In this document: in pieces, positions 11,746-54,773 of the stretch
How positions within the stretch are numbered: the stretch's first letter is position 1
Layout: every line of letters begins with the position of its first letter
From: Patescibacteria group bacterium
GTDB lineage: Bacteria; Patescibacteriota; Minisyncoccia; Phycocordibacterales; Phycocordibacteraceae
Direction of reading: 5' to 3'
Length of the DNA: 64,000 bases
Assembly: GCA_004322365.1 (NCBI GenBank)
Contig: SCTS01000003.1
Location: forward strand, 2,709 to 66,708
Program-made: the position numbers and the translations under genes
The notes under the pieces: generated by a model
What the model saw: only the letters and a program-made list of their open reading frames with translations
Told to the model about the DNA's origin: nothing
Databases searched by the model: none

Positions 11746-12306
11746 ATGAAAAATGCACTGGTACTCCATGGCACGAATGATTCCTCAGAAGGGAATTGGT
11801 TCCCATGGTTACAGGTAGAACTTGAGAGGATAGGTTGGAAGGTCTGGGTACCTGATTTACCACAAGCCGACGCTCCCAATATGCAGAGGTATCAGAATTT
11901 TATTTTTTCTTCTGATTGGAAATTTGATAATGAATCTGTCATTGTCGGTCACTCGTCAGGCGCGGTAGCAATTTTAGGACTTCTGCAAGCATTACCTGAA
12001 GGTACCGTTATTGATACGGCAGTTTTTGTGGGTGCATTCAAAAATGATTTAGGTTGGGATAGTTTGAAAGAGCTTTTCAGCAAACCATTTGATTTTGCAA
12101 AAATACGCGCCTCGGCAAAGCGTTTTGTTTTTCTTCATTCCGACAACGACCCTTTTTGTCCTCTCGAAGGAGCAACAAGTCTTTCAAAAGAATTAGGGGG
12201 TGAGCTCATTGTTGTCCCAGGTGCATCTCATTTTAGTCTCGGTACTGGAGGTGATGCATATCAAAAGTTGCCCATCATTCTCGATATTCTCCATGAACCT
12301 CATTAA
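11746..12306 (+). CDS. alpha/beta-fold serine hydrolase, RBBP9/YdeN-like
   Basis: GHSSGA nucleophile elbow, HSDND, PGASHF motif order typical of YdeN family; ATG at 11746. Confidence 0.6.
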   Translation: MKNALVLHGTNDSSEGNWFPWLQVELERIGWKVWVPDLPQADAPNMQRYQNFIFSSDWKFDNESVIVGHSSGAVAILGLLQALPEGTVIDTAVFVGAFKNDLGWDSLKELFSKPFDFAKIRASAKRFVFLHSDNDPFCPLEGATSLSKELGGELIVVPGASHFSLGTGGDAYQKLPIILDILHEPH

Positions 12307-12700
12307 GCGGGGAATTGTATTCGGTGTCTTTGATGGGCTTCATGAAGGACATCGGTTTTTTTTGAAATCGGCATCCGATAAATGCGAAAGCCTCATTGTA
12401 GTTGTTGCTATAGATGATGCCTCTCTCGCCCTAAAAGGCAGAATACCCAAGCATTCTTTTAATGAGCGTATGCAAGCACTTCTTTCCTTTAATCCTTCCC
12501 TCAAAGTAGTTCCCGGCGACTCTATACAAGGAGAATGGAGTGCACTGACAATGTATATGCCAGACATGGTGTTTTTGGGGCATGATCAGAGCGCGATTGC
12601 TGAAGAGCTTGAGAAAATAGGAATTCAATTTTCATTTATAGATTCTCACCGCCCGGAAGAGTTTAAATCGAGCTTGCTGCACCGCTTTGAAGTGGAGTAG
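12293..12700 (+). CDS. cytidylyltransferase-like nucleotidyltransferase (PPAT/RibL-like)
   Basis: GVFDGLHEGH (H/T-x-G-H) motif; ~135 aa; overlaps upstream gene by 14 nt. Confidence 0.55.
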   Translation: MNLIKRGIVFGVFDGLHEGHRFFLKSASDKCESLIVVVAIDDASLALKGRIPKHSFNERMQALLSFNPSLKVVPGDSIQGEWSALTMYMPDMVFLGHDQSAIAEELEKIGIQFSFIDSHRPEEFKSSLLHRFEVE

Positions 12701-14194: not shown

Positions 14195-14549
14195 GTTTTG
14201 TGTTGTATTTTGTTTTTGAGGTTTAGCTAGTTTTCTTTCAACGCAAATCGATACTTTTGTCTGTCCCACAAAACGGCTCTTATGGGTACTTTTGGGACGA
14301 CGCCCCACCAAAAAGTTTGACAGAGACAGTCTTTGTTTCTTTTTGATTTTTTAATTGATATCCACACGATTTTTTTGAGACTCCAATGTCCACAGACATG
14401 TAGAATGCTCTATACCTCCCGTCATTCCTGTTGTAATCTGTACATCCGACTTACATTTTGATTTACCGATTCTTGCGAAAAATATTTCTTGCAAAATCGT
14501 AGAAAATTATTAAATTATTCCGTTTTCGGACGGGCACCATCTCTCGACC

Positions 14550-17411: not shown

Positions 17412-17469
17412 AGATAGCCTTCAGGTTTCAACTTTTAGCTTTAAAATTTAATAACTAAAAAAATCTAAA

Positions 17470-18504
17470 ATGGCAATCCAAAGAAACGCAAAGCCCGTCG
17501 ATGTAAACCAGCGCCGTGTCATTAACGGTCTTGAGGCTGATGTCATTCAGCTCTACCCAATGAAGCATAAGTTTGCGTGGGAGTACTACAACGCTGCAAA
17601 TTCAAACCACTGGCTACCAACAGAAATTTCAATGCAGTTGGACATCGAGCAGTGGAAATCGCCAACTGCACTCTCGCAAGATGAACGACATGCGTTTGAA
17701 ACCATTCTTGGATTTTTCACCACCGCTGATTCAATCGCAGCAAACAACATTGTCATTGGCTTCTACAAGCATGTGACCTCGCCTGAGATTCGTATGTACT
17801 TACTTCGTCAAGCATACGAAGAAGCAATTCACACCCATGCATATCAGTACATTGTTGAATCGTTGGGAATGGATGAGTCTAAGATATTCAACATGTATCG
17901 CGAAGTTGATGCTCTCTACAACAAGGAAGCATTCATTCTTTCGTTTAACGAAGGTGTTTTTGATCCAGCATTTAAAACAGGAACATTTGAAGCAGATCAA
18001 AAATTCTTGGAAAACTGGGCAGTCTTCTCACTCATTTTGGAAGGTATTTTCTTTTACTCATCATTCGCAGTTATGTTTGGCTTTCAGCGCCAGCACAAGC
18101 TCACTGGTTCTGCCGAACAGATTCAGTACATCATGCGTGATGAGTCTATGCACTTGAACTTTGGTCTTGAAATCATCAATGCAATTCGCGAAGAAAATCC
18201 AGAATTGTGGACACAGAAATTCCAAGATCGAATTATCGAACTCGTGCACCAGGCAGTCAAACTTGAGTACGAATATGCGCGCGATGTATTTCCAACGGGC
18301 ATTTTCGGACTCAATGCCGATGGATTCAAAGAATATATTCAGTTTATTGCTGACAGACGCTTGGAGCGTGTAGGACTACCTGCTCAGTACCACTCAACGA
18401 ATCCTTTCCCATGGATGAGTGAAGCTATTGACCTTGCAAAGAAGAAGAACTTCTTCGAGACTCGTGTTACCGAATACAAGACTGGAGGTGCATTGAATTG
18501 GTGA
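17470..18504 (+). CDS. nrdB: ribonucleotide reductase beta subunit (di-iron/tyrosyl radical)
   Basis: EEAIHTHAY and EGIFFYSSF motifs. Confidence 0.9.
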   Translation: MAIQRNAKPVDVNQRRVINGLEADVIQLYPMKHKFAWEYYNAANSNHWLPTEISMQLDIEQWKSPTALSQDERHAFETILGFFTTADSIAANNIVIGFYKHVTSPEIRMYLLRQAYEEAIHTHAYQYIVESLGMDESKIFNMYREVDALYNKEAFILSFNEGVFDPAFKTGTFEADQKFLENWAVFSLILEGIFFYSSFAVMFGFQRQHKLTGSAEQIQYIMRDESMHLNFGLEIINAIREENPELWTQKFQDRIIELVHQAVKLEYEYARDVFPTGIFGLNADGFKEYIQFIADRRLERVGLPAQYHSTNPFPWMSEAIDLAKKKNFFETRVTEYKTGGALNW

Positions 18505-32825: not shown

Positions 32826-33887
32826 TTATTTTCCTTGACCGTAATATTGTTTGAGAAGAGCAACATGCTCCTTGTAGGTTGCGGTGCAGTGGAAGCCTCC
32901 TTTTTTGTCATGGAAGTAGAAGATGCAATCTGTTTTTTTAGGATTAAGCGCTGCAACGACAGCGGCAACAGAAGGGCTTGCGATAGGAGTTGGCGGTAAA
33001 CCAGAATTTAGATAGGTGTTGTAGCTTGATTTAATATATTTATCTTTTGGTGCAACTTTAGGCCACCATATATCGTTTTTTCCTTTGTTTGCAGAGCTTT
33101 TTGCATACTGAAGAGTTGCATCAATTTGGAGATTCATGTCATTCCAAATACGATTCCAGATTATGCCTGAGATTATTCGCATTTCATCAGGGTCGCTTGT
33201 CTCGCGCTCCAAGAGGGATGCAATGGTTAGTGCTGTCTCCAATGGAACTATTTGGGCAGTGGAGGTCGCATAGCGAGAAAGTATTGTGTTATGAAAACGC
33301 TCATCCAAGGTTCGCTTGATAGCATCAAGATCATCACCGGCATTGACTTCATATGTCCCTGGGGCAAATTTACCCTCACCTAGAGTTGGGGCTTCCGTAT
33401 TTGTATGGGTAAGAAACTCTGCGCGCTCTTCTCGACTCCAATCTAATGTTTTTCCAAAAGCTCGCGCAACCTCTTCTTGTCTATATCCCGGGTAAATGGT
33501 GACAAATTGCATTCCTGCTGCTCCGACAAGTGCATAGCCAGGCACGGAAGTGATGATGCTGGCGATAGTACCTAATATTCCCTTTGCCTTAATAGAAGCA
33601 GCAGATAGTGAGGGGTTTTCTTTAGTAAAGAAGGCATCTACTTCTGCATTTTCGTTGATAGATCTTCCTTGTGGATTGACGCTGACAGGGAAAGGTTTAA
33701 CTGTAGGAGTTACGATTTCTTGTTCCTGCTGTATTTGAAAGGAGAAAAAATAAGGGAATGAAAGAACTGCGATACCTATAACCACAGCAATTACTGCACC
33801 CCAGAGCAGGAGTGGTTTTTTACTTGGCATTTTTTTCTTAGCCTTGATGTTTCGCGTCAAAGGTTTTGAGGCTGAGGAACTTGCCAT
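32826..33887 (-). CDS. mltG: endolytic murein transglycosylase MltG (YceG-like)
   Basis: N-terminal TM; SSYNTYLNSGLPPTPIASP signature; convergent with pdxT. Confidence 0.8.
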   Translation of the reverse strand: MASSSASKPLTRNIKAKKKMPSKKPLLLWGAVIAVVIGIAVLSFPYFFSFQIQQEQEIVTPTVKPFPVSVNPQGRSINENAEVDAFFTKENPSLSAASIKAKGILGTIASIITSVPGYALVGAAGMQFVTIYPGYRQEEVARAFGKTLDWSREERAEFLTHTNTEAPTLGEGKFAPGTYEVNAGDDLDAIKRTLDERFHNTILSRYATSTAQIVPLETALTIASLLERETSDPDEMRIISGIIWNRIWNDMNLQIDATLQYAKSSANKGKNDIWWPKVAPKDKYIKSSYNTYLNSGLPPTPIASPSVAAVVAALNPKKTDCIFYFHDKKGGFHCTATYKEHVALLKQYYGQGK

Positions 33888-33916: not shown

Positions 33917-34891
33917 CTAATCAGTTTCAAAAAGCTCACTCAATGATTCACCATTATTTAGGCGATTAATAGCATTTCCAAAAATTTCACCCACAGAAAT
34001 AACTTCTATTTTCTGAGACAGTGTTTGCGTTTGAAGAACGCTGTCAGTTATGAATATTTTTTTAACGGGTGAGCGGTCAATGGCGGACATGGCACTTCCT
34101 GAAAGTATGCCGTGCGTAGCTGCAGCGTAGACTTCTTTTGCGCCGTTCTCCATAAGTAGAGCAGAGGCTTTTTCAAGAGTTCCACAGGTATCAAACATAT
34201 CATCAATAATGAGTGCGATTTTGCCTTTTACATCGCCGACAAGTTTCATTGCCGTTACCTGATTGGGAATTTCGCGTTGTTTGTGAATAATTGCAAGATC
34301 TACATTTTTTGTTAATCGTTTTGCATATGATTGTGCACGACTTACACCGCCGACATCAGGTGACACGACCACGAGCTCCTCTTTTGCTAATGCGTCAGCA
34401 AAGAAGGACTGGAAGAAAGATATAAATACAGGTCGGGCGTATAAGTAATCAACGTTGGTGTCCCTGAAGAATCCGCCAATGGCATCTGTATGTAAGTCCA
34501 TTGCCAAAATTTTATCGGTACCGAGTGTTTCAAGGAGTACTGCAACTACCCGAGCGGAAATTGGTTCACGAGGCTTTGCTTTCCTCTCCTGCCGTGCGTA
34601 TCCCATGTAGGGGAGTACGACGGTGATTTCTCGCGCAGACGCACCACGCGCGGCTTCAACAGCGAGGAATAAGCGCATCCAGTTTTCAGCAGGTGGGTTA
34701 GTGGATTGAACAAGAAATACACTCTTTCCACGAAGATTCTCCATAAACTGAACATGCTGTTCGCCGTCAGAGAATGTTTTTAGTTTTATTTTCCCCAAGG
34801 AGGTGCCGAGCTTTGATGCAATTTTTTCAGCAAGAGGGTCGTTCGAGCCGAGGCTGAATATTGCGTAGTCCATTAGTGGGGAGTATATCAA
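33917..34891 (-). CDS. prs: ribose-phosphate pyrophosphokinase
   Basis: DLHTDAIGGFF, PRPP-binding DDMFDTCGTL motif. Confidence 0.85.
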   Translation of the reverse strand: MIYSPLMDYAIFSLGSNDPLAEKIASKLGTSLGKIKLKTFSDGEQHVQFMENLRGKSVFLVQSTNPPAENWMRLFLAVEAARGASAREITVVLPYMGYARQERKAKPREPISARVVAVLLETLGTDKILAMDLHTDAIGGFFRDTNVDYLYARPVFISFFQSFFADALAKEELVVVSPDVGGVSRAQSYAKRLTKNVDLAIIHKQREIPNQVTAMKLVGDVKGKIALIIDDMFDTCGTLEKASALLMENGAKEVYAAATHGILSGSAMSAIDRSPVKKIFITDSVLQTQTLSQKIEVISVGEIFGNAINRLNNGESLSELFETD

Positions 34892-34965
34892 GAACTGTGT
34901 CTAATGTGTAACATTTTCCTCTTTGCGTGGGTTTATGTATTTAGTACTAGGATGCATGCGTAAAG

Positions 34966-35427
34966 GTGTCCCGTGTCTTATACTGCTTTAATACACTCAT
35001 GATTATCGTAAACCAACTCACTGAGGTTTCAGATCAAAACATACAGGAACTAGAGCTTCTCTCGGGTATGTTGCATGGCGATGAACGAAAATCATCGGCA
35101 GACGAAATTGCCCGCATACTCGGCAACCCTTCTATTATTTTTGTTGTTGCAAAAGACTCTGAACGCATTATAGGAATGGGTGCGCTCTATATACATCAGA
35201 AAGTTGGTAAAATAGGGTCATATATAGAAGATGTCATTGTTGATAGTGCGTACCGTGGACAAGGGTTAGGTAAAAAAATAGTACAAGCTCTCATTGATGG
35301 GGCACGCGAGCGGGGAGTGGTATCAATTTCACTTACCTCACGACCAGAAAGAATTGCAGCGCATACTTTGTATGAAAAACTTGGTTTTAAAAAATATGAC
35401 ACAAATGTTTTTAGAATTACCCTCTAA
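34966..35427 (+). CDS. GNAT-family N-acetyltransferase
   Basis: RGQGLGKKIVQALIDGARERG acetyl-CoA binding motif A. Confidence 0.7.
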   Translation: MSRVLYCFNTLMIIVNQLTEVSDQNIQELELLSGMLHGDERKSSADEIARILGNPSIIFVVAKDSERIIGMGALYIHQKVGKIGSYIEDVIVDSAYRGQGLGKKIVQALIDGARERGVVSISLTSRPERIAAHTLYEKLGFKKYDTNVFRITL

Positions 35428-35439
35428 TAGCTAGCTCTA

Positions 35440-36585
35440 ATGTCACGGGTAAAAATTACGGAATATCGAGCTAAGAAACTCATTCTCGGAGATTCATATA
35501 CGGGAGTTTCTATTCACAATGGGAAAATTGTACTTCCGAAAAGTGGGCGATTTGTTGCAAAGGTTGATCAAGGTATTAAGAAGCGTTTTAAGCAGGGGCT
35601 TGTTGCCGTGGATGGTACATCCACGGCAATTTCTAAAAGTGTCTCTTTGTGGAGGAAAAAAGGTTTCTCTCATTTTCTTGTTGAGCCGTATGTACCGCAT
35701 GAGGAGTCTGAAGAGCAGTACCTTTCTTTAGAGCGGGTGCGCACGGGAATACGAATATTGCATGCATCTGCTGGCGGTATTGATATTGAAGCGCATCCCG
35801 AGCTTGTGAAAACATATCTCATAAATCCAGCACTACCATATACGATAGTGCCGGGCATCCCAGAAAAATTCTTGAAACATCTTGTGGAGGTGTTTGAGAA
35901 GAACTTTTTCTCGTTTCTTGAAATTAATCCACTCGTTGTTCGGGGAGACGAAGTATATATCCTCGATGCAGCGGTGCTCGTCGACAGCGCGGGAATATTT
36001 TTCGTCAAAAATGGATGGAGTGAAGACGATATTGTTGAGGGAAAGGCACGACATATTGCTGAAGAAAAAGTGCAGGCACTTCAAAAAACTACCCCTGCCT
36101 CTTTGAAACTCACCATTTTGCACCCTGATGGAGGTTTGTTTTTTCTGCTTTCAGGTGGTGGTGGAAGTATTGTTATTGCGGATGAGGCAGAACTTAATGG
36201 TGTGGGTCGCTCCATTGGCAATTATGGAGAATATAGCGGTGGTCCAACTCGGGAAGAAACACATCTCTACGCACGAGAGGTGATCCAGCTATTACTTAAT
36301 TCACCTGCAAAGAAGAAAGCCCTCGTGATTGCTGGAGGTATTGCAAATTTTACCGATATTAAATCAACTTTTAGAGGTGTCGTTGATGCCTTGTCAGAGT
36401 ACACGGGCACTCTCCGGAGAAAAGGTGTAAAAGTATTTGTGCGTCGTGGTGGGCCACATGAAAAGGAGGGACTTTTGTATATGGAGGAGTATTTAAAAAA
36501 GGAAAAATTATTTGGTTCAGTGTATGGCTCTGAGGCAGTGATTACGAGTGCAGTGGACGATGCGATAGCATTTATAAAAAAATGA
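35440..36585 (+). CDS. ATP-citrate lyase small (ATP-grasp, AclB-like) subunit
   Basis: Recalled blocks match eukaryotic/bacterial ACL N-terminal half: FLVEPYVPH, FLEINPLVV, LKLTILHPDGG..LSGGGGS, NYGEYSGGP, AGGIANFTD, FVRRGGP. Confidence 0.75.
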   Translation: MSRVKITEYRAKKLILGDSYTGVSIHNGKIVLPKSGRFVAKVDQGIKKRFKQGLVAVDGTSTAISKSVSLWRKKGFSHFLVEPYVPHEESEEQYLSLERVRTGIRILHASAGGIDIEAHPELVKTYLINPALPYTIVPGIPEKFLKHLVEVFEKNFFSFLEINPLVVRGDEVYILDAAVLVDSAGIFFVKNGWSEDDIVEGKARHIAEEKVQALQKTTPASLKLTILHPDGGLFFLLSGGGGSIVIADEAELNGVGRSIGNYGEYSGGPTREETHLYAREVIQLLLNSPAKKKALVIAGGIANFTDIKSTFRGVVDALSEYTGTLRRKGVKVFVRRGGPHEKEGLLYMEEYLKKEKLFGSVYGSEAVITSAVDDAIAFIKK

Positions 36586-38387
36586 ACATACTTGAATTAA
36601 CACGGAAAGGAAGAACAAAGGTTCTCGTCATAGGGAATCATTCAGGCATTATTCAGTCGATGCTTGATTTTGATTTTCTTTCAGGTAAAGACATTCCTTC
36701 TGTGCTGGGGATAGTTGCAGGGAATCGCAAAGCAGAAAAATATTTTTTTGGCACTAAAGAAATTTTGTTGCCATGTTATAAAAACATTCAAATTGCTTCG
36801 GAAGTCCTAGGTTCAAAAGTCGATTGGATGCTTAATCTTCAGTCAGGACGGCGTACATTTGAATCAACGGTTTCCTTTTTTGATTTTTTCCCAAAATCAC
36901 TTGGGGCACACATATTTGCAGAAAATGTTCCAGAAAGTCATGCAACTGAGCTCATCTCTCGTTTTGGTAAAAAATATTTCATTGTGGGGCCTTCAGGAGT
37001 TGGGTTGTTGGTGCCGAACGCATTAAAGCTTGGTGCCATTGGTGGTGTTGATGCGGTGCAAATTAAATCTGGAGCACTGACAAGTGCTGGAAATATTGCG
37101 GTTGGTTCAACCTCTGGAGGGATGACTAATGAGTTGATTCATGCAGTTGCGCGTGCTGGGAAAAGGCTCTCGTTTGCCATAGCTATTGGTGGGGATAGAT
37201 TTCCCGTTGTTTCTTTAACGCAAATATTTGCACTCGCTGAAGCAGATTCTCAAACAGAAGGATTTGTATATTTTGGAGAGCTTGGCGGTGTAGATGAATA
37301 TGAAATTATTGAGCTCATTAAGGCAAAAAAGTTTACCAAACCCCTCGTTGCCTACATTGCAGGAATCATAGATGAAGCATTTGATGAACATGTGCAATTT
37401 GGGCATGCAAAAGCACTCGTTCAGACAATGGACGAAAGCGCTCGTGCAAAGCGTGAGGCACTTCGCAGTGTTGGTGTTATTGCTCCTGATACATTTCCTC
37501 AGTTTCTTGATGCGCTTCAAAAACTTCCCGGAGGCGCGTATACTGCTGAGGAAATGGACATTCAACCGCTCCAAGGGCGCCAGAAAAGCATTCTTTCAAC
37601 GAGAAAGGTTTTGGATATAGATGAGGGTCGTGTTTTTGTAAAAGGAAAAAAGCTTTTGAAAGGCAAAGAAAATGCGTTTGTTGACGCTACCTTGGGGGCT
37701 CTTCTAGGGAAACCAGTACGCTCTCCAGTAACACGAGCTTTTACCGAAGCCGTTTTTGAAATGCTCATAGACCATGGAGGAAATGTATCAGGAGCAGTGA
37801 ACACTATGATTACTGCCCGTGCAGGGAAAGATCTTGTTTCGTCTTTAGCCTCAGGTCTTCTCACAGTGGGCCCTCGTTTTGGTGGAGCAATAAACGAAGC
37901 AGCTCGTTTGTGGATTCTAGGTGTGGTGTCGCAAAAAACAGGTTTGGGGTTTGTAGCTGAAAAAGCAAAAGCAGGAGAGCTGATTTTAGGTATTGGGCAT
38001 AAGAAATACCGCGTTGGGTTGGCAGATCCTCGAGTGAAAGCTCTTGCTGAATTCGCAACGCTTCTTAAAAAGCATCCGCATTATGATTTTGCACGGAGTG
38101 TTGAGAAAGCAACAACTTCAAAAAATGGAAAATTGATTTTAAACATTGACGGCGCTATTGCGGCATTACTTCTGGATATTTTGAGTGAGTGCGAAGGAAT
38201 GAGCGAGCGGGAACTCCAAGAGCTTGCTGACGCAGAATTCTTTAATGCATTTTTTGTTATCCCTCGTTCCGTTGGTTTCATTGCACATTTCATGGAACAA
38301 AAGAAAAACGATGAAGGTTTGTTCCGTCTCCCCGATGAACTACTGTTTGTGAGAGAAGAGACTCCAAAGAAAAATAAGAAGAAATAA
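36582..38387 (+). CDS. ATP-citrate lyase large (CoA-binding/phospho-His + citrate-synthase-like, AclA-like) subunit
   Basis: SucD-like N-half with QFGHAKA phospho-His loop; C-terminal GIGHKKYRVGLADPR matches citrate-synthase/citryl-CoA-lyase G-x-GH-x-x-Y-x-x-x-DPR; ATGA overlap with upstream gene. Confidence 0.75.
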   Translation: MNILELTRKGRTKVLVIGNHSGIIQSMLDFDFLSGKDIPSVLGIVAGNRKAEKYFFGTKEILLPCYKNIQIASEVLGSKVDWMLNLQSGRRTFESTVSFFDFFPKSLGAHIFAENVPESHATELISRFGKKYFIVGPSGVGLLVPNALKLGAIGGVDAVQIKSGALTSAGNIAVGSTSGGMTNELIHAVARAGKRLSFAIAIGGDRFPVVSLTQIFALAEADSQTEGFVYFGELGGVDEYEIIELIKAKKFTKPLVAYIAGIIDEAFDEHVQFGHAKALVQTMDESARAKREALRSVGVIAPDTFPQFLDALQKLPGGAYTAEEMDIQPLQGRQKSILSTRKVLDIDEGRVFVKGKKLLKGKENAFVDATLGALLGKPVRSPVTRAFTEAVFEMLIDHGGNVSGAVNTMITARAGKDLVSSLASGLLTVGPRFGGAINEAARLWILGVVSQKTGLGFVAEKAKAGELILGIGHKKYRVGLADPRVKALAEFATLLKKHPHYDFARSVEKATTSKNGKLILNIDGAIAALLLDILSECEGMSERELQELADAEFFNAFFVIPRSVGFIAHFMEQKKNDEGLFRLPDELLFVREETPKKNKKK

Positions 38388-38437
38388 TTCCTGTTCCGTA
38401 GCCACTTGTTCTGAGTTATTATTGTCTCTACAGTATC

Positions 38438-38510
38438 GGGCGGTTAGCTCAGTTGGTAGAGCGTTCCCTTCACACGGGAGAGGTCACAGGTTCGAATCCT
38501 GTATCGCCCA
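38438..38510 (+). tRNA. tRNA-Val (anticodon CAC)
   Basis: Acceptor GGGCGGT/ATCGCCC, D-arm gctc-agttggta-gagc, anticodon loop ttcacac, T-arm acagg-ttcgaat-cctgt. Confidence 0.85.
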
Positions 38511-38615
38511 CACATAATTTATTATGTGTGGCAGGATGAGAATGCCGGAGCGATGTTTTTAGTTTCGAAAAACCGTGAGGCGGGGTTGCGACCAAAGCGA
38601 GCGACGACGAGCTTT

Positions 38616-38646
38616 GAGTTGTGACCGAATCCTGTATCGCCCACCA
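38616..38646 (+). pseudogene. degenerate copy of tRNA-Val 3' half (T-arm remnant + acceptor 3' strand + CCA)
   Basis: gaatcctgtatcgccca repeats the tRNA-Val 3' end 115 nt downstream in direct orientation. Confidence 0.55.
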
Positions 38647-38678
38647 GTTCTTTTAAATTCTAATTTTCTTCCTCATTT

Positions 38679-38752
38679 CGGGGCGGAGTATGCCGGTAGT
38701 ACATACGATTCGGGTTCGTATAGACCGAGTTCGATTCTCGGCGCCCCGACCA
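38679..38752 (+). tRNA. tRNA-Pro (anticodon CGG), C1:G72, CCA encoded
   Basis: Acceptor CGGGGCG/CGCCCCG, 3-bp D-stem, anticodon stem tacga/tcgta with loop ttcgggt, T-arm ccgag-ttcgatt-ctcgg, ACCA tail. Confidence 0.7.
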
Positions 38753-38779
38753 TAGAGGTAAAACATATTTTTTATTCAT

Positions 38780-38850
38780 GGGCCTATAGTCAAGTGGTAC
38801 GATGCTACATTCGCATTGTAGAGGCGCGAGTTCGATTCTCGCTAGGTCCA
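38780..38850 (+). tRNA. tRNA-Ala (anticodon CGC)
   Basis: Acceptor GGGCCTA/TAGGTCC with G3:U70, anticodon stem ctaca/tgtag loop ttcgcat, T-arm gcgag-ttcgatt-ctcgc. Confidence 0.8.
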
Positions 38851-39004
38851 CAGAAATAATGCGCAAAGCGCATATATTTCGTAGGATGTCGCATCCCTGA
38901 TGCGACGCCACAAAGTTATCATTTGTGCTCCAGGGAGCAGGGCTCGCAGGAACTCTTTCAAAAAGAATAGTGACCTGAGGTCCAATTCTCTTTCTCGCAC
39001 ACTC

Positions 39005-39076
39005 GCTTTCATCGTTCAATGGATAGGACATCTCCCTCCGAAGGAGAAAATCCAGGTTCGACTCCTGGTGAGAGCA
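39005..39076 (+). tRNA. tRNA-Arg (anticodon CCG)
   Basis: Acceptor GCTTTCA/TGAGAGC (two G:U), D-arm gttc-aatggata-ggac, anticodon stem tctcc/ggaga loop ctccgaa, T-arm ccagg-ttcgact-cctgg. Confidence 0.6.
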
Positions 39077-39122
39077 CAAACAAAAACTAACCGCGCAAGC
39101 GATTATTTTTGTTTGTGCTCTC
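39070..39122. repeat. 17-bp perfect inverted repeat hairpin (gagagcacaaacaaaaa / tttttgtttgtgctctc, 19-nt loop) overlapping the tRNA-Arg acceptor 3' strand
   Basis: Exact reverse-complement arms read from sequence; followed by a 7-bp hairpin (ggatgtc-tggga-gacatcc) at 39124-39141 and a hairpin+T6 at ~39143-39176. Confidence 0.7.
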
Positions 39123-39322
39123 GAGGATGTCTGGGAGACATCCGTGCAGGAATCGAATACCTTGCGAGCATTTTTTCTGAACTTCCGAAAAAACCACGTA
39201 CTCCAAGAGTCATTCTGCTGAATGAGGTGTACAGCTCCTGTAAAGGGACTTTTCAGAAACTGCGTTCGGACGAAATGAAAACTGCGTTTTCGTTTCGCTC
39301 CTCGCTTGTTTCTGTAAGGAGA

Positions 39323-39340
39323 GACTCCTGGTGAGAGCAC
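39323..39340 (+). repeat. direct repeat of tRNA-Arg 3' end (gactcctggtgagagcac) 250 nt downstream of the tRNA
   Basis: 18-nt exact copy of 39059-39076. Confidence 0.6.
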
Positions 39341-39408
39341 TCTTCAACTCCTTTCGTTCGCTCAGTGCAACAACTTACAGCGATTATTTTTCTAAGCACT
39401 ACAAAAAG

Positions 39409-39450
39409 CCTGTATAGTATAAATTAACGACCGTTAACTTATACTATACC
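39409..39450. repeat. palindromic element copy A (cctgtatagtataaattaacga-ccgttaacttatactatacc)
   Basis: Near-perfect 42-bp palindrome; same family as 54794-54839 and 55204-55245. Confidence 0.7.
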
Positions 39451-39509
39451 GAGTAAGATGGGTAGTATTTTGTTTAATGCTTTAATTTTGGGCGGTATAT
39501 AATAAAAAA

Positions 39510-40088
39510 ATGAAAGATCGATCATACCGAAAACCTCTGATGCCTGAAAATGCGAAGCGTGTTTTTGAAGGTGAAATTTTTGACATGTATCAGTGGGAAC
39601 AAGGGCTCTACGATGGAACTTCTGCAACTTTTGAAAAAGGTTCTCGTCCCGATACCGCGATCGTTTTTCCTATTATGGAAGACGGACAGATTTTGATAAT
39701 TGAAGACTCGCAACCTCATCGAGAGACAGTTCTTACTACTGTTGCAGGCAGGATAGAGTTTAACGAAACTCCTGAAGAGGCTGCCAAGCGGGAACTCTTG
39801 GAAGAGACAGGTTATGAAGCAAATACATGGGAATCTTTTTACACAGTTACCCCAGTCGAGAAACTTGATTGGGTTAATTATGTTTTTATCGCAAAAGGAT
39901 GTAGAAAAGTAAAAGATCAACAGCCTGACGCAGGGGAGAAAATAACTGTACGCTCAGTCACATTTGAGGAACTTATTTCACTTGCTTCGGAAGGGGAGTT
40001 GCGGGGCAGGGATTTCAGAATCATGGTACTTCAGGCAATGTTAAATCCTGAAAAAATGAAAGATTTACGAAAGAGGTTTGCCAACTAG
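39510..40088 (+). CDS. NUDIX hydrolase
   Basis: Nudix box GRIEFNETPEEAAKRELLEETG. Confidence 0.8.
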   Translation: MKDRSYRKPLMPENAKRVFEGEIFDMYQWEQGLYDGTSATFEKGSRPDTAIVFPIMEDGQILIIEDSQPHRETVLTTVAGRIEFNETPEEAAKRELLEETGYEANTWESFYTVTPVEKLDWVNYVFIAKGCRKVKDQQPDAGEKITVRSVTFEELISLASEGELRGRDFRIMVLQAMLNPEKMKDLRKRFAN

Positions 40089-42252: not shown

Positions 42253-43005
42253 ATGGAATCTAAAATTCATATCTCGCTGAAAGCGGATTCGTTTGGAACT
42301 CTGTGGGGTATGCCCATCACAAGCAGTCTGCTTATGACATGGTTGGCAATGGGAATCCTCTTCCTTTTCGTGTTTCTGTTTAGGCGCTCCATTGCCCTTA
42401 TACCGGGAAAACTGCAAGCAATGCTTGAGTGGGCGATTGAAGGCGCGATGGCATACATGACCGAGACCCTTGAAGATGCGAAGCTCGCTCGACGTTTTTT
42501 CCCACTCATAGCAACGCTCTTTCTCTTTATTCTGACCATCAACGAACTCGCGTTCTTCCCTGGTGTAGGAAGCGTAGGATTCTTTACTGAGCACGGATTC
42601 GCGCCACTACTCCGCCCTTCAACTGCCGACCTCAATACAACACTCGCCCTTACCCTCATCTCAGTTATTATTGTTGAAATCACTGGTGTGGTAGCGCTGG
42701 GATTTTTCCGTTATACAGGGAAATTCATAAATTTCTCGTCCCCACTTAATTTTGTTGTTGGTTTAATTGAATTAGTAAGCGAACTGGGACGCTTGGTGTC
42801 GTTGTCGTTTCGTCTTTTCGGTAACATATTTGCGGGTGAGGTTTTGATTGCGGTGATTGCGCTGTTCGTGCCGTATATTATGCCTATCCCATTTATGCTC
42901 TTCGAAATTTTTGTTGGTTTTGTTCAAGCTGTTATCTTCTCTTTACTGACTTTGTTTTTCATCAAACTTGCGGTTACGCCCCCTCATGCGAGCGAAGCTC
43001 ATTAA
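42253..43005 (+). CDS. atpB: F0F1 ATP synthase subunit a
   Basis: FRLFGNIFAGE conserved Arg motif; 5-6 TM. Confidence 0.85.
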   Translation: MESKIHISLKADSFGTLWGMPITSSLLMTWLAMGILFLFVFLFRRSIALIPGKLQAMLEWAIEGAMAYMTETLEDAKLARRFFPLIATLFLFILTINELAFFPGVGSVGFFTEHGFAPLLRPSTADLNTTLALTLISVIIVEITGVVALGFFRYTGKFINFSSPLNFVVGLIELVSELGRLVSLSFRLFGNIFAGEVLIAVIALFVPYIMPIPFMLFEIFVGFVQAVIFSLLTLFFIKLAVTPPHASEAH

Positions 43006-43107
43006 AACTGAGGAAAACCAGCCTCAATTGCTAGCCTAGTGAGGGGAAATTGGTGTATACTAGCGAGGTAATTATCAAGCCGTAAGGCATTATTTTGTAT
43101 TAATTAA

Positions 43108-43341
<234 letters not shown>

Positions 43342-43369
43342 TTGGTTTGATTTAGAAGGAATCTAAAAT

Positions 43370-43816
43370 ATGGGAGAGCTATTTGCTACATTCGGTCTTG
43401 ATGTACGACTGCTTGTTATTCAAGCAGTGAATTTTGGCATCACACTCGTTATACTTTGGTACTTTTTGTATCGACCACTTCTTCGGATAATTGGTGAACG
43501 AAAAGAGAAGATTGCGAAAGGTGTCCGTGATGCCGAAGCAGCAGCTTTCGCTGTTACGGAAATTGAAGAAAAGCGTACTTCAATGCTTTCTGCCACAGAG
43601 CGTGAGGCACAAGGCTTGGTTGAGCGTGCAACTCTCGAGGGTAAGGATGAGCGTGCAAAAATCATAAAAACTGCACAAGAAAGAAGCGACGCAATACTTG
43701 CCGATGCTAAAGCGGAGGCTGTGGAAATGCAACGCCGTGCTCTTGCCGAGTCTGAGAAGGAAATGACTCGTTTGGCAGTGCTTGCTGCAGAAAAAATTCT
43801 TCGAAAACAATCATAA
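43370..43816 (+). CDS. atpF: F0F1 ATP synthase subunit b
   Basis: Single N-terminal TM then long charged helix, operon position. Confidence 0.75.
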   Translation: MGELFATFGLDVRLLVIQAVNFGITLVILWYFLYRPLLRIIGERKEKIAKGVRDAEAAAFAVTEIEEKRTSMLSATEREAQGLVERATLEGKDERAKIIKTAQERSDAILADAKAEAVEMQRRALAESEKEMTRLAVLAAEKILRKQS

Positions 43817-43822
43817 ACCACC

Positions 43823-44206
43823 ATGTCACTTGCTAATGCCTATGCTTCAGTTATTAATGAAACTCCACAAGAGCTTCAAAATGCTGATTTTACTTTGAAG
43901 TTGCTTGCGTTTATGCGTGCACGAGGACACATGTCACTTCTTTCTGAGATTGTGCAAATACTAGAAAATAAACCAAAAGAGGCTGACGCAGTAGTGACTG
44001 TTGCTCACGGGGCAGATTTGAAAGAATTTGCATCTGAAATAAAATCTGCTCTCTCTACATTAGGGGCGGATGCAAAAATACACCGCACCATCGTTGATGC
44101 CCGTGCTGTGGGTGGCTATTCAGTGCGCGCAGGTTCTCAAATAATCGACAACACCTTTAGAACAGCGCTCGTCGACATTTATCAAAAAACAGTAGGTAGT
44201 AGATAA
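43823..44206 (+). CDS. atpH: F0F1 ATP synthase subunit delta (short, 127 aa)
   Basis: Operon position between b and alpha; OSCP-like C-terminal region. Confidence 0.6.
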   Translation: MSLANAYASVINETPQELQNADFTLKLLAFMRARGHMSLLSEIVQILENKPKEADAVVTVAHGADLKEFASEIKSALSTLGADAKIHRTIVDARAVGGYSVRAGSQIIDNTFRTALVDIYQKTVGSR

Positions 44207-44282
44207 TCGGTAGCGCACTTTAAAGCTCGTTACTTACCATTTACTACATACTTTAAACTTGTTACTAACTTACTAATCTCAT

Positions 44283-45842
44283 ATGGACATCAGCATCATT
44301 GAACGCCTCAAGAGAGAAATTGAATCCTTTGCACCAAATGCAAAGCCAACTGAAACGGGCATCGTGCGCAAGGTGGGTGATGGCATTGTTGAGATAGAAG
44401 GTTTGGATGAAGTGTCGATGGCCGAGATGGTTCGCTTTGACGAAGGTTCGGTATCTGATGTGAAAGCAACTATCGCACATGAGGATACACTCTACGGCGT
44501 TGTGTTGAACTTGGAAGAGAATACTGTAAAGGCAATCATCCTTGGAGATTCTTCCCGCATTAAAGAGGGAATGCTTGTGCATCGCACAAAGAAACTTCTT
44601 TCAATACCAGTTGGAGATGCAGTGATTGGTCGCATCGTTGATGCACTTGGAGTTCCTATAGATGGGAAAGGCCCAATCAAGGCGGATGCCACGAGTCCTA
44701 TTGAGCGCGAGGCGTACGGCGTTATTGATAGAGGTCCTGTGAATGTGCCAATGCACACCGGCATTAAAGCAATTGACTCACTGATTCCTATCGGCCGCGG
44801 ACAGCGCGAACTCATCATTGGTGACAGAGGCACTGGTAAAACAACGGTTGCTATTGATGCAATTTTGAACCAACTCAATGAACCAAAGGAGACACGCCCT
44901 ATTTGTGTATATGTCGCTATTGGTCAAAAAGAATCAAAGACTGCCCGCATTGCAGCAATGCTTAAAGAGCGCGGTGCGATGGATTACACCATTATGGTAT
45001 CAGCTCCAGCATCAGCGTCAGCAGCATTCCAATTCTTGGCACCGTACGCGGGTGTAACTTTGGGTGAATATTTCATGGATAAAGGCAGAGATGTGTTGGT
45101 TATCTATGACGATCTTTCCAAGCAAGCTGTTGCGTACCGACAACTCTCTCTTCTCCTTCGTCGTCCTCCTGGACGCGAGGCATACCCTGGAGACATTTTC
45201 TACCTCCACTCAAGACTTTTGGAACGAGCTGCAAAACTTTCTCCTGAAAAAGGAGGAGGCTCTCTTACGGCACTTCCTATTATTGAAACGCAAGAAGGTG
45301 ACATCTCGGCATACATTCCAACCAATGTTATTTCTATTACTGATGGTCAGATGTTCTTGGAAGCGGATCTTTTCAACAAAGGAACGCGCCCTGCTATCAA
45401 TGTAGGTATTTCAGTTTCTCGTGTCGGTTCCGCTGCTCAAACAAAAGCTATGAAGAAGGTGTCGGGACGCATCAAGCTCGACCTCGCACAGTTCCGTGAA
45501 CTTGAGGCATTCATGCAGTTCTCCCAAGACCTTGATGCTGAAACAAAGAAGACTATCGATGGTGGTCGCCGTCTTTCAGCAATCTTGAACCAAAACAAAA
45601 ACGCCCCAATTCCATTTGAGCGACAAGTCGTTGTCATGTACGCAGTCACGAACGGTTTCTTTGATGCCTTTGGTGCAGAGCAGATGGGTGAGATAGAGGC
45701 GAAGTTTCTTGCATATCTCGACAGGGAAGCAAAGGGAGTTCTTGAAGCTATCCGCACATCTAAAGAAATAGCTAAAGACACAGAAGAAAAATTGAAGAGC
45801 GCTATTCAATCGTTTGTTTCAACTGTAGATGTGAAAAGCTAA
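44283..45842 (+). CDS. atpA: F0F1 ATP synthase subunit alpha
   Basis: GDRGTGKT Walker A, conserved alpha core. Confidence 0.9.
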   Translation: MDISIIERLKREIESFAPNAKPTETGIVRKVGDGIVEIEGLDEVSMAEMVRFDEGSVSDVKATIAHEDTLYGVVLNLEENTVKAIILGDSSRIKEGMLVHRTKKLLSIPVGDAVIGRIVDALGVPIDGKGPIKADATSPIEREAYGVIDRGPVNVPMHTGIKAIDSLIPIGRGQRELIIGDRGTGKTTVAIDAILNQLNEPKETRPICVYVAIGQKESKTARIAAMLKERGAMDYTIMVSAPASASAAFQFLAPYAGVTLGEYFMDKGRDVLVIYDDLSKQAVAYRQLSLLLRRPPGREAYPGDIFYLHSRLLERAAKLSPEKGGGSLTALPIIETQEGDISAYIPTNVISITDGQMFLEADLFNKGTRPAINVGISVSRVGSAAQTKAMKKVSGRIKLDLAQFRELEAFMQFSQDLDAETKKTIDGGRRLSAILNQNKNAPIPFERQVVVMYAVTNGFFDAFGAEQMGEIEAKFLAYLDREAKGVLEAIRTSKEIAKDTEEKLKSAIQSFVSTVDVKS

Positions 45843-45876
45843 AACCTAGCACCTGAAACCTGACACCTAAAATCCC

Positions 45877-46794
45877 ATGTCTCTCAAGGATATAAAAATC
45901 AAAATAAAATCTGTTGACCGTACTCGTAAAGTTACGAAGGCAATGGAGTCTGTTTCTGCGGTAAAGATGCGCAAAAGCCAGATACGCGCAATTACTTCAC
46001 GACCATACGCTTCTTCCGCGCTTTCTATTTTGGAACGCATGAGTGTTTCTCTCTCATCTCTCAAACACCCGTTGACAGTTGTGCGCCCTGTTAAAAAAGC
46101 TGCCATTGTTGTAGTGACAAGCGATAAAGGTTTGTGCGGAATATTAAATGCTGCTGTTGTGAAATCCGCCTACACGCTTGCGGAATCACTTGAAATCCCG
46201 CGTGAAGCAATTTCTATCTATGCTTTTGGACGCAAAGGGGCCGAGTTTTTTGATCGCCGTGGATATCAAATTTTAGGAAAATTTGAAAACGTTTCCGACG
46301 ATGTTTCTGTTGCTGATTTGGCGCTGGTATCAAACGATATTGCGCGAGCGTTTCTAAGTAAAGAGTTTGATCGTGTTGATGTTGTATACACGAATTTCAA
46401 ATCAACCTTTGAGCAAAGTGCTATTGCCCACAAGGTACTACCGCTTTCGATTGAAACAGTTTCTGAAATAGTAAGTGGCATTGCTCCAGTGAAAGGAAAA
46501 TTTGCTGTAACAGAGCGAGTGAAAGGCCCTGCATCATACACGGCAGAGCCATCTCAAGAGGTGGTTGTCGATGCTTTGATTCCACGCTTGGTAAGTGTTC
46601 TTTTCTTTCATGCACTTCTGGAGTCTAAAGCATCCGAGCACTCAGCTCGAATGGTTGCTATGAAGAATGCATCTGATAAATCCCGTGACCTCTCAAAGTT
46701 GCTGACGAGAAAGTACAATAAAGCTCGTCAGGCGCTTATTACCAGAGAAGTTTCCGAGATTGTCGGAGGTATTGAGGCGATGGCGACTAGTTAG
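45877..46794 (+). CDS. atpG: F0F1 ATP synthase subunit gamma
   Basis: N- and C-terminal coiled-coil helices, operon position. Confidence 0.8.
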   Translation: MSLKDIKIKIKSVDRTRKVTKAMESVSAVKMRKSQIRAITSRPYASSALSILERMSVSLSSLKHPLTVVRPVKKAAIVVVTSDKGLCGILNAAVVKSAYTLAESLEIPREAISIYAFGRKGAEFFDRRGYQILGKFENVSDDVSVADLALVSNDIARAFLSKEFDRVDVVYTNFKSTFEQSAIAHKVLPLSIETVSEIVSGIAPVKGKFAVTERVKGPASYTAEPSQEVVVDALIPRLVSVLFFHALLESKASEHSARMVAMKNASDKSRDLSKLLTRKYNKARQALITREVSEIVGGIEAMATS

Positions 46795-46827
46795 AAAGAA
46801 TAGAAGAACTAATGTAAAATCAAAAAC

Positions 46828-47010
46828 ATGGCATCCCCAGAAAGAAAAGGAGCATTAGATATCTTTAATCTTCCGGGTCGCGGGCGACTTGGTTTGGCAG
46901 GAGGAATGGGCGGAGGCGGAGGCTCATACAGACCTGAACCAGTAAGCCGTCGTGACAATGTGGTAAAGCTGGATGATTTTAGAAAATTGAAGGAAGATAC
47001 GAATCAGTAA
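46828..47010 (+). CDS. small Gly-rich hypothetical protein inserted between atpG and atpD
   Basis: ORF track 60 aa; GLAGGMGGGGGSY; fills the gap between atpG and atpD. Confidence 0.35.
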   Translation: MASPERKGALDIFNLPGRGRLGLAGGMGGGGGSYRPEPVSRRDNVVKLDDFRKLKEDTNQ

Positions 47011-47035
47011 ACTCACAAAATTTAATTTACAATAA

Positions 47036-48415
<1,380 letters not shown>

Positions 48416-48567
48416 TGGCCTATGTTAAGAGATCGTCAACCTACGCTTCGAGAAAAACCTCTAAATCCGCTTGAAACGTATATTTCTTTCATGCGGAGAG
48501 TGAGTTCACCTCTCATGGAGTGGTTGCTTCCCGATGCATTACCTGCGAAAAAACAAAAATAATTTTT

Positions 48568-48798
48568 ATGTTGGTTGTTATTGCAAAAGTTCATGAGAAT
48601 CTTTTTTCGGGAGAAGCACTCTCGCTTTCTGCTATGACCACAGAAGGGAAGCTGACGATACTTCCAAAACATGAACCATTTGTAGCAAACCTGAAAGCAG
48701 GAGAAGTGGTAGTAAAAACAACTTCAGGGGAAGAGAGGTTTGATATTACTGAAGGAGTTCTTGAGGTGTCTAACAATCAAGTAACGGTACTTTTGTAG
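48568..48798 (+). CDS. atpC: F0F1 ATP synthase subunit epsilon (beta-sandwich domain only)
   Basis: MLVVIAKVHENLFSGEA...LTILPKHEP; ATG at 48568; 76 aa. Confidence 0.65.
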   Translation: MLVVIAKVHENLFSGEALSLSAMTTEGKLTILPKHEPFVANLKAGEVVVKTTSGEERFDITEGVLEVSNNQVTVLL

Positions 48799-54164: not shown

Positions 54165-54773
54165 ATGTCTGCTAGAATAGGCGACATGACTTCGAGTAAG
54201 AAGAAAATATTTATTCTCATGGGAAATCCTGACAGCGATTCTCGTACAGGACACCTTGCTGATGCGTATGAACTCGGCGCTCTTGAAGCAGGACATGAAG
54301 TGAGGCGTCAAAATGTAGGTGAGATGCATTTCGACCCAATACTCCATAAGGGATATAAGGTTATTCAGGAATTAGAGCCTGACTTAAAAGCTTTTCAGGA
54401 AAATGTACGATGGGCAGATCATTTGGTGGTGTTGTATCCAAACTGGTGGTCCACGATGCCCGCCCTCTTGAAGGGACTTATTGACCGGGCGTGGCTTCCG
54501 GGGTTTGCGTTTCGTTTTCATAAAACCGACACATGGTGGGACGGTCTTTTGAAAGGAAGGAGCGCTCGCATAATAATTTTAGCTAACACCAACCCATGGG
54601 CTGCGTGGTTTATGTTTGGTGAATTCACTAACGAACTTGCGCGGGCAACGCTCGCATTTTCAGGTATTCGTCCAATTTCAATCAATGTGTTTACACCCTC
54701 TGAGAAAGTCTCAGAAACCAAATGGAAAAAATGGGTGCAGATGGTGCAAGAAATGGGGAAATTTGCCCGTTAA
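54165..54773 (+). CDS. flavodoxin-like fold NAD(P)H-dependent oxidoreductase (Flavodoxin_2/MdaB/KefF-like)
   Basis: FILMGNPDSDSRTG N-terminal FMN-binding loop, WWSTMPALLKGLIDR. Confidence 0.7.
   Translation: MSARIGDMTSSKKKIFILMGNPDSDSRTGHLADAYELGALEAGHEVRRQNVGEMHFDPILHKGYKVIQELEPDLKAFQENVRWADHLVVLYPNWWSTMPALLKGLIDRAWLPGFAFRFHKTDTWWDGLLKGRSARIIILANTNPWAAWFMFGEFTNELARATLAFSGIRPISINVFTPSEKVSETKWKKWVQMVQEMGKFAR

Follow-up and report, generated by a model that had tools for sequence, protein, structure and literature searches.

A probable two-subunit ATP-citrate lyase with an acetyltransferase partner in a Paceibacteria (Candidate Phyla Radiation) bacterium

The 64,000-nucleotide stretch of contig SCTS01000003.1 (GenBank assembly GCA_004322365.1, positions 2,709 to 66,708), hereafter the window, comes from a Patescibacteria group bacterium and carries two adjacent genes, aclB and aclA (Table 1), that probably encode a complete, functional ATP-citrate lyase (ACL) of a Paceibacteria member of the Candidate Phyla Radiation (CPR), with a proposed stand-alone role in metabolism and an old, vertical origin. 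An earlier note on this DNA, made from the sequence alone, had read the two open-reading frames (ORFs) as translationally coupled ACL subunits, and this reading was borne out. Both frames are intact and overlap by ATGA, and every motif quoted in the note was found in the translations, with FLVEPYVPH, FLEINPLVV, NYGEYSGGP and FVRRGGP in the 381-residue AclB and GHAKA and GIGHKKYRVGLADPR in the 601-residue AclA.

Both subunits were compared with profile libraries and with all PDB chains, covering ACL, citryl-CoA synthetase (CCS), citryl-CoA lyase (CCL) and SucCD, and for both the best match was ACLY. In AclB, Pfam recognized the ACL-type ATP-grasp domain (Citrate_synth_N, PF24948; E = 1e-28, 100.7 bits against a cut-off of 83) and the ACL-specific citrate-binding domain (Citrate_bind, PF16114; 9e-48). 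In AclA, Ligase_CoA and Succ_CoA_lig matches were accompanied by a C-terminal Citrate_synt match (5e-21, residues 371-582), the lyase domain occupying residues ~347-590 of 601 and being fused to the alpha subunit. The top PDB match of AclA was human ACLY (2.4e-95, 323 bits, residues 11-591), with ACLY-B of Methanothrix (Methanosaeta) concilii at 1e-93 (residues 11-587) and Chlorobium limicola AclA at 4.5e-54 (187 bits), compared to 2e-20 or worse for the alpha subunit of succinyl-CoA synthetase (SCS) and ~1e-16 for CCL and CcsB. AclB aligned to the N-terminal part of human ACLY (1.6e-58, 202 bits, human residues 53-418), M. concilii ACLY-A (5e-48), C. limicola AclB (9e-29, 104 bits) and CcsA (4e-14). 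The AclB/AclA architecture described in the earlier note is therefore supported both by Pfam and by full-length alignment to solved ACLY structures, and the pair is, judged by its domains and alignments, very probably a genuine heteromeric ACL of the AclB/AclA type (EC 2.3.3.8).

For residue mapping, HMMER alignments were converted to native human ACLY numbering. Which human residues matter was taken from the ACLY structural literature, and on the AclB side (3MWD and the ACLY literature) these are K58, R66, N203, D216, G309, N346, T348 and R379. AclA residues E114 (in the segment IFAENVP), H275, H398, H473, R484, D523, R562 and R582 align to human E599, H760, H900, H975, R986, D1026, R1065 and R1085, respectively, while AclB residues K41, R49, N163, D176, G267, N303, F304, T305 and R336 align to human K58, R66, N203, D216, G309, N346, F347, T348 and R379. 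The listed AclA catalytic residues are invariant in 41 sequences of the clade and the listed citrate- and nucleotide-site residues of AclB in 38. In the phospho-histidine loop the catalytic histidine is kept and one position deviates, with a lysine (K277) in place of glycine, giving GHAKA for the usual GHAGA. FGHAKA is present in 117 of the 120 closest AclA homologues and in all members but one of the clade described below, and K277 is invariant in the 41 clade sequences, compared to GHAGA or GHAGS in nearly all other ACL representatives. The Gly-to-Lys change beside the catalytic histidine is thus a clade-wide natural variant of a motif that is otherwise nearly invariant in ACL. The ratio of nonsynonymous to synonymous substitution rates (dN/dS) is 0.045-0.06 for AclA and 0.07-0.22 for AclB, and the ATGA overlap is maintained in 30 of 38 loci. 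Since all other catalytic residues are kept and purifying selection is strong, an active enzyme is the economical reading.

The 120 best AclA homologues are 63-97% identical to the window protein, and those with names come from metagenome-assembled genomes (MAGs) of Patescibacteria, Paceibacterota, Kaiserbacteria or Liptonbacteria. When one genome per GTDB species was scanned, ACL turned up in 45 loci, almost all of them carrying the label Paceibacterota, Kaiserbacteria or Patescibacteria, a count that is a lower bound because a single protein query was used; aclB and aclA are adjacent in 39 of the 44 scorable loci, the window included. Gene order over 20 kb is shared with a relative that is 97% identical (GCA_018062445.1) and runs from UvrA, UvrC, Ddl, PdxS and PdxT through YceG and Prs on the opposite strand to GNAT, AclB, AclA, the tRNAs and NUDIX, with the F-type ATP synthase operon beyond. 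The GC content, third-position GC content (GC3) and codon usage of aclB and aclA lie within ~1.2 standard deviations of the 48 larger genes of the window, and across eight related genomes the identity of AclA and AclB drops, from 0.97 down to 0.67, along with that of Prs, Ddl, PdxS, UvrC and YceG. In a library of 1.84 billion representatives, only 124 clusters (50% identity) reached E<=1e-30, and those checked by name or PDB search were of ACL type. In a neighbour-joining tree of 51 near-full-length representatives and the window AclA, the latter grouped with ACL sequences, in a clade of 100/100 bootstrap support with a Dojkabacteria sequence and unnamed metagenome sequences. Its sister, with weak support (49%), is a group that includes a Saccharibacteria sequence, and a DPANN (Norongarragalinales) sequence is close by, with 13% support for a grouping with DPANN-like sequences. 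Both the M. concilii/eukaryote type (P0143) and the Chlorobium type (P0192) fall in other parts of the tree. Lineage-wide presence, native composition, parallel divergence and purifying selection together indicate that ACL is an old, selected and vertically transmitted trait of the Paceibacteria/Kaiserbacteria lineage and not a recent import. An ancient transfer of ACL into the ancestor of the clade is possible.

The gene directly upstream of the pair, identified in the earlier note as a GNAT acetyltransferase, indeed has a Pfam Acetyltransf_1 match at 4e-20, and its stop codon falls 12 nt before aclB. The longest ORF runs from a GTG at 34966 (34966-35427), and the 142-residue form from the probable ATG agrees with relatives; dN/dS is 0.12-0.23, and the gene is probably co-transcribed with aclBA. 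A scan of 34700-39600 for sigma-70 promoters and terminators gave no more sites than shuffled sequence. When the ORFs around ACL in the 45 loci were clustered, an acetyltransferase immediately upstream of aclB was the only recurrent non-housekeeping partner, with a GNAT of either of two families directly upstream in ~25 related loci and within 1.5 kb in ~28. The family of the window gene occurs in 17 related loci, mostly with a gap of 0-12 nt to aclB or an overlap, and the second family, of ~200 residues, in 11 loci with gaps mostly of 1-4 nt and both Acetyltransf_3 and Acetyltransf_1 matches in 9 of 9 members. The two families are remotely related (hhalign probability 61%). The second family stands upstream of aclB in other Paceibacteria sub-lineages (L009:562-1134, L022:8259-8849, L025:8213-8842 and L041:8236-8859, among others), and locus L019 carries both families in tandem.

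The presence of two different GNATs in the same slot points to functional coupling, in which ACL makes acetyl-CoA and the GNAT spends it. This suggests that part of the ACL-derived acetyl-CoA would feed N-acetylation, and the GNAT-aclBA operon may be the dedicated, perhaps the only, route of this lineage from host citrate to acetyl groups. Such a conserved acetyltransferase partner would be a bacterial parallel to ACLY-fed acetylation in eukaryotes. In a single-sequence PDB search, the GNAT matched eukaryote-type glucosamine-6-phosphate N-acetyltransferases (3FB3, 3T90, 1I12); a profile search returned first a diamine acetyltransferase (6YUG, 1e-17), then a GNA1-like enzyme of Trypanosoma (3FB3, 1e-15) and many classes after it. 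A GNA1 function was dropped, given the leading diamine acetyltransferase and NCBIfam scores that are all under their cut-offs.

By analogy with the solved ACLY enzymes, ATP would be bound by the ATP-grasp domain of AclB and citrate by its citrate-binding domain, and His275 of AclA would be phosphorylated and then hand the phosphate to citrate. The citryl-phosphate would be attacked by CoA to give citryl-CoA, which the C-terminal lyase domain (His398, His473, Asp523) would split into acetyl-CoA and oxaloacetate. Citrate from a host or the surroundings could in this way be converted, using ATP and CoA, to acetyl-CoA, which would serve acetylation, and to the C4 acid oxaloacetate, which would go to amino-acid or C3/C4 interconversions. 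No other gene of the tricarboxylic acid (TCA) cycle was found among the annotated ORFs of the 64 kb, some of which are without a Pfam hit or were left unscanned, and, to our knowledge, CPR bacteria in general are without the cycle, so ACL most likely works alone. This agrees with the streamlined, possibly symbiotic host pictured in the earlier note, and it inclines us, with modest confidence, to stand-alone cleavage of scavenged citrate to yield acetyl-CoA plus oxaloacetate as the physiological role, where the direction of flux, the source of citrate and the fate of the products are as we infer them. Citrate drawn from the host or the environment would then be a source of acetyl-CoA for ultra-small bacteria of whose carbon economy little is understood. 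Several observations weigh against this picture: the phospho-histidine loop has a lysine where glycine is near-universal, there is no recognizable citrate transporter within the 64 kb, and the profile hits of the GNAT are spread over polyamine, aminosugar-phosphate and protein N-acetyltransferases.

A mislabelled SCS, ADP-forming acetyl-CoA synthetase (ACD) or CCS, recognized through common domains, is hardly credible as an explanation of the pair. Models for SucC/SucD and acetate-CoA ligase do give weak matches, and NCBI names many of the homologues 'citrate/2-methylcitrate synthase' or 'hypothetical protein', but the scores of all SCS-, ACD- and CCS-type models are far under their curated cut-offs. 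The NCBIfam SucC model gives 42 bits for the beta subunit against a cut-off of 375 and the SucD model 95.7 bits for the alpha subunit against 336, and the citrate synthase and citryl-CoA lyase models likewise fall far short. The ACL-specific citrate-binding domain, the lyase domain joined to the alpha subunit, unlike CCS and CCL, and the full-length ACLY alignment at 1e-95, where CcsB/CCL reach 1e-16 and the SCS alpha subunit 2e-20, all argue the same way. The pair is placed in neither SCS nor ACD and the citrate-synthase-like domain is present, as the earlier note had expected. A SucCD identity was accordingly rejected on the SucC/SucD scores and the extra citrate-binding and lyase domains, as was a two-enzyme CCS and CCL system, given that there is no separate lyase of ~260 residues and the domain is part of the 601-residue subunit. 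A decaying relic without function would account for the unusual GHAKA loop and for an ATP-grasp half of AclB that falls ~40 residues short of its counterpart in human or M. concilii ACLY, but is scarcely conceivable for genes with dN/dS of 0.05-0.2, catalytic residues invariant over 38-41 species, and intact frames and translational coupling. The earlier note had also proposed that the pair was acquired horizontally with the tRNA island, that is, that ACL is a recent arrival on an island integrated at the adjacent tRNA genes, which we consider very unlikely. The tRNA cluster does lie directly downstream and has exact 18-19-nt direct repeats of tRNA 3' ends, ACL is patchy across the CPR overall, which makes some ancient transfer plausible, and the ACL of a Gracilibacterium was reported to be closest to archaeal proteins (PMC6851277). 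However, what the repeats enclose are inserts of 133 and 263 nt located 3' of the tRNAs, and ACL lies 5' of tRNA-Val, outside them. No integrase was found among the window ORFs or in the syntenic region of the relative, the comparison of GC and codon usage with the window genes revealed no deviation, and the order GNAT-aclB-aclA-tRNA-NUDIX is identical in genomes with and without inserts. ACL divergence keeps pace with that of its neighbours, the 45 lineage genomes carry it, and its clade has full bootstrap support. A tRNA-integrated genomic island was therefore rejected, there being no integrase, only 114-245 nt of non-coding DNA between the repeats, native composition, and ACL in all close relatives.

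As to the role, ACL is the usual marker of the reductive TCA (rTCA) cycle and is scored as such by metagenome pipelines, but the possibility that it is the key enzyme of that cycle here and that the organism fixes CO2 is highly improbable. There is no other TCA or rTCA gene either in the 64 kb or in the ~20-kb surroundings of the 45 related loci, where the recurrent neighbours are housekeeping genes; 2-oxoglutarate:ferredoxin oxidoreductase, fumarate reductase, pyruvate:ferredoxin oxidoreductase and other cycle enzymes are found neither in the window nor among these recurrent neighbours. The window AclA is also far from the Chlorobium rTCA type, at 187 bits against 323 bits to human ACLY, and the Chlorobium-type P0192 is distant in the tree. 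Hits to aclA and aclB in CPR genomes are routinely scored as markers of rTCA carbon fixation, and since ACL almost certainly works alone in the Paceibacteria lineage, such calls would overstate autotrophy. It is also improbable, if somewhat less so, that the reaction proceeds backwards in vivo, the enzyme serving as an ATP-conserving citrate synthase and making citrate, ATP and CoA from acetyl-CoA, oxaloacetate, ADP and Pi. Such a use has been described for Desulfobacter postgatei, the reaction is reversible in principle, CPR bacteria depend on substrate-level phosphorylation, and no citrate synthase was seen in the window. Against it, neither an enzyme that uses citrate nor a source of acetyl-CoA or oxaloacetate is nearby, the conserved GNAT partner consumes acetyl-CoA, in keeping with acetyl-CoA production, and an F-type ATP synthase operon is present.

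A conserved metabolic partner such as malate dehydrogenase or a citrate transporter was sought beside ACL in the 45 loci and none was found; besides the GNAT, the recurrent neighbours are housekeeping genes, a DUF11 surface protein and an AI-2E-family transporter. In a Kaiserbacteria-like sub-lineage (L012:2144-4213 and the equivalent position in 19 loci), aclA is directly followed by a gene for a ~690-residue protein that has a membrane segment at its N-terminus and matches DUF11 weakly, and then by those for glycyl-tRNA synthetase, an AI-2E-family transporter and methionyl-tRNA synthetase. The rest of the window contains CPR-typical genes, including those for a class-I ribonucleotide reductase, a class-I aldolase, an RND pump, an FTR1 permease, and small secreted or membrane proteins, among others. 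The regions 14550-18504, 42253-48798 and 54165-54773 hold the class-I ribonucleotide reductase, small subunit included, the F-type ATP synthase operon, which is complete, and an NAD(P)H oxidoreductase of flavodoxin-like type. Class-I ribonucleotide reductase is oxygen-dependent, and the three together are a hint of aerotolerance. The window also has two paralogues of the YceG/MltG family within 30 kb of each other, at 32826-33887 (-) and 62744-63697 (+).

The tRNA island with att-like repeats that the earlier note placed directly downstream is real as a structure, with four tRNA genes between 38438 and 39077 and exact repeats, but fails as a sign of import, as the tRNA-end repeats do not mark the ACL genes as imported. 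All four anticodons (CAC, CGG, CGC, CCG) have C at the first position, and the cluster therefore comprises the C34 isoacceptors of four four-codon boxes. At 38626-38644 the final 19 nt of tRNA-Val occur again without change. Alignment of the tRNA region with three close relatives revealed that the tRNA-Val insert is present in the window, L004 and L035 and absent in L006 (AclA 96% identical), that a tRNA-Pro insert of 153-156 nt is present in L004 and L006 and absent in the window, and that the tRNA-Arg insert is present in the window and absent in L004. At tRNA-Pro the window has the empty site, in which CCCCGAC is directly followed by CATAGAGG, and in L006 a 153-nt insert stands before the same flank and closes with 19 nt copied from the tRNA 3' end. 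The last 16 nt are repeated 133-263 nt downstream in 8 of the 47 testable tRNA genes of the window and the 45 loci, compared to 0 of 141 control comparisons. A further repeat, of 13 nt (AGCGATTATTTTT, at 39098 and 39379), is found with the tRNA-Arg insert, and its region has a perfect 17-bp hairpin (39070-39122). A 226-residue ORF (38660-39340, minus strand) runs antisense through three tRNA genes and inserts, has a GC3 z-score of +2.3, and is almost certainly not a gene.

The tRNA-Val insert may belong to an undescribed family of structured elements, which we propose tentatively, and this family could be a non-autonomous mobile element targeting tRNA 3' ends or a functional RNA mimicking tRNA. 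The element measures ~140-220 nt, is found on the same strand as the tRNA gene in Paceibacteria genomes and uncharacterized metagenome contigs, and lies a few tens of nt behind the tRNA gene. Its parts come in the order of a hairpin, an arm that is complementary to the T-loop and T-stem of the tRNA and ends in TCGAA, a core with the canonical sequence ...CGGAGGCGGTATACAAGACGA...GCTTGTCGCCGAG..., and a terminal 19-nt copy of the upstream tRNA from C56 to the base after the discriminator. The core 18-mer GGAGGCGGTATACAAGAC, present in L035 and L041, has exact matches in at least 120 metagenome contigs. Among the 124 listed contexts of this 18-mer, 85 have a same-strand tRNA just upstream, with 18 amino-acid specificities, and the exact repeat is 19 nt in 30 cases. 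Alignment of 23 metagenome copies fits a three-way junction in which 93.5% of cells are paired, compared to 32-46% with partners slid, and the covariation score of 0.414, against at most 0.10, was reached by 0 of 500 shuffles.

A covariance model built from these 23 copies (R1) found 126 copies in 767 kb, including two each in L004 and L035 and others in L005, L006, L007 and L041, and matched the window at full length at 38517-38644 (38.5 bits, E ~1e-6). In the model-fitted alignment, compensatory changes occur in all 29 pairs and 92.9% of cells are paired, compared to 34-41% when slid; G-U pairs exceed A-C pairs by 132 to 37, indicating that the structure reads on the tRNA strand. The tRNA-Arg insert was not matched by R1 despite the same repeat hallmark, and may be a decayed or different relative. 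Of the 126 copies, 96 directly follow a tRNA and 7 another copy, with up to four copies per locus of <=15 kb. At 96-97% AclA identity, genomes differ in the copies that they have gained or lost, yet the core shares exact 18-mers over at least 120 contigs. The fixed 19-nt duplication from C56, the target-matched arm, the copies in tandem and the gain and loss between strains are consistent with a non-autonomous mobile element, which might insert by target-primed insertion with a 19-nt target duplication or by integration of a folded single strand. The core, exceptionally conserved and covarying, suggests selection on a structured RNA or on a folded single strand. No protein gene recurs within 4 kb of the element. 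Searches of Rfam 15 gave significant matches only to tRNA in the window region 38300-39600 (E<=1), nothing credible beyond tRNAs in 12 loci with canonical copies (E<=0.1; the weak matches all outside the element) and only two chance-level hits for one canonical copy (E<=10). Neither the IMG/VR viral contigs nor the INPHARED phages nor the PLSDB plasmids gave a match to the element, and full-text searches by sequence and descriptive terms did not find it in the searchable literature. Abundant and strongly covarying, the element may be the most novel item in the window.

Table 1 Features of the ACL locus and copies of the tRNA-trailing element; positions are those of the window unless a locus is named
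Feature	Position	Strand	Basis
GNAT N-acetyltransferase gene, 142 aa from probable ATG 34999	34999..35427	+	Pfam Acetyltransf_1, 4e-20
aclB, ATP-citrate lyase beta subunit (ATP-grasp and citrate-binding domain), 381 aa	35440..36585	+	Pfam, PDB alignments
aclA, ATP-citrate lyase alpha subunit (CoA-binding, phospho-His, C-terminal citryl-CoA-lyase/citrate-synthase-homology domains), 601 aa	36582..38387	+	PDB alignments
Codons H275-A276-K277, phospho-histidine loop GHAKA (usual form GHAGA)	37404..37412	+	Homologue comparison
tRNA-Val (CAC)	38438..38511	+	ARAGORN; Rfam tRNA, 69 bits
Insert behind tRNA-Val, putative diverged copy of the structured tRNA-trailing element, 133 nt	38512..38644	+	Repeat, model R1
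tRNA-Pro (CGG)	38679-38752	+	ARAGORN, Rfam
tRNA-Ala (CGC)	38780-38851	+	ARAGORN, Rfam
tRNA-Arg (CCG)	39005..39077	+	ARAGORN, Rfam
Insert behind tRNA-Arg, 263 nt	39078..39340	+	Exact 18-nt tRNA 3'-end copy at 39323-39340
Element copies elsewhere	L004:11931-12063, 12170-12325; L006:12025-12177; L035:12602-12735, 14378-14505; L041:13611-13749; metagenome L049-L168		

Among the solved enzymes, the M. concilii ACLY-A/ACLY-B (6HXI/6ZNW) resembles the window pair in its two subunits, domain order, full-length alignment and catalytic residues, and differs in having GHAGA, in an ACLY-A ~40 residues longer than AclB, and in belonging to another clade of the tree (P0143). Human ACLY (6HXH, 6POE, 3MWD) is the best-scoring solved relative (323 and 202 bits), and its eight catalytic residues listed above for AclA and citrate-site residues N346, T348 and R379 are kept in the window proteins. 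It is one fused chain of ~1100 residues with a linker, whereas the window has two chains, and human G762, H908 and R976 are replaced in the window AclA by Lys, Val and Lys, respectively. The C. limicola AclB/AclA (6HXJ), of the rTCA type, is likewise heteromeric with the same domains, but its similarity is much lower (187 and 104 bits) and it belongs to an autotrophic rTCA cycle, of which the window gave no sign. The Hydrogenobacter CcsAB/Ccl system (6HXQ/6HXP) performs the same chemistry with homologous domains over two enzymes, its lyase being separate, unlike the fused lyase of the window, with a similarity of just 1e-14 to 1e-17.

Within the CPR, a two-subunit ACL was described in a Gracilibacterium by Sieber et al. 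(2019), who predicted conversion of imported citrate to acetyl-CoA and oxaloacetate and a possibly archaeal origin (PMC6851277). Compared by description only, that case is like the window in being a CPR bacterium without a TCA cycle for which the same physiological reading was proposed, and differs in its CPR class and its GHAGA loop (PMC6851277). The same paper calls ACL 'rarely detected in CPR' (PMC6851277), whereas the window type is conserved across a Paceibacteria lineage, carries GHAKA and is linked to a GNAT. A groundwater study of 2025 reported aclAB to be enriched in Saccharimonadia MAGs (PMC12577380), and its supplementary table lists aclA in 3 of 11 MAGs of one class, 2 of 372 of the largest and 0-3.5% of others (PMC12577380). 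In a preprint, CPR sequences in citrate-cleavage trees are noted to carry wrong annotations as SCS or citrate synthase. No paper on the Paceibacteria/Kaiserbacteria ACL clade, its GNAT linkage or the GHAKA loop was found in the literature outside subscription journals. ACL in the CPR has thus already been reported, in Gracilibacteria and Saccharimonadia, and the window pair adds a case with a clade-specific change from GHAGA to GHAKA.

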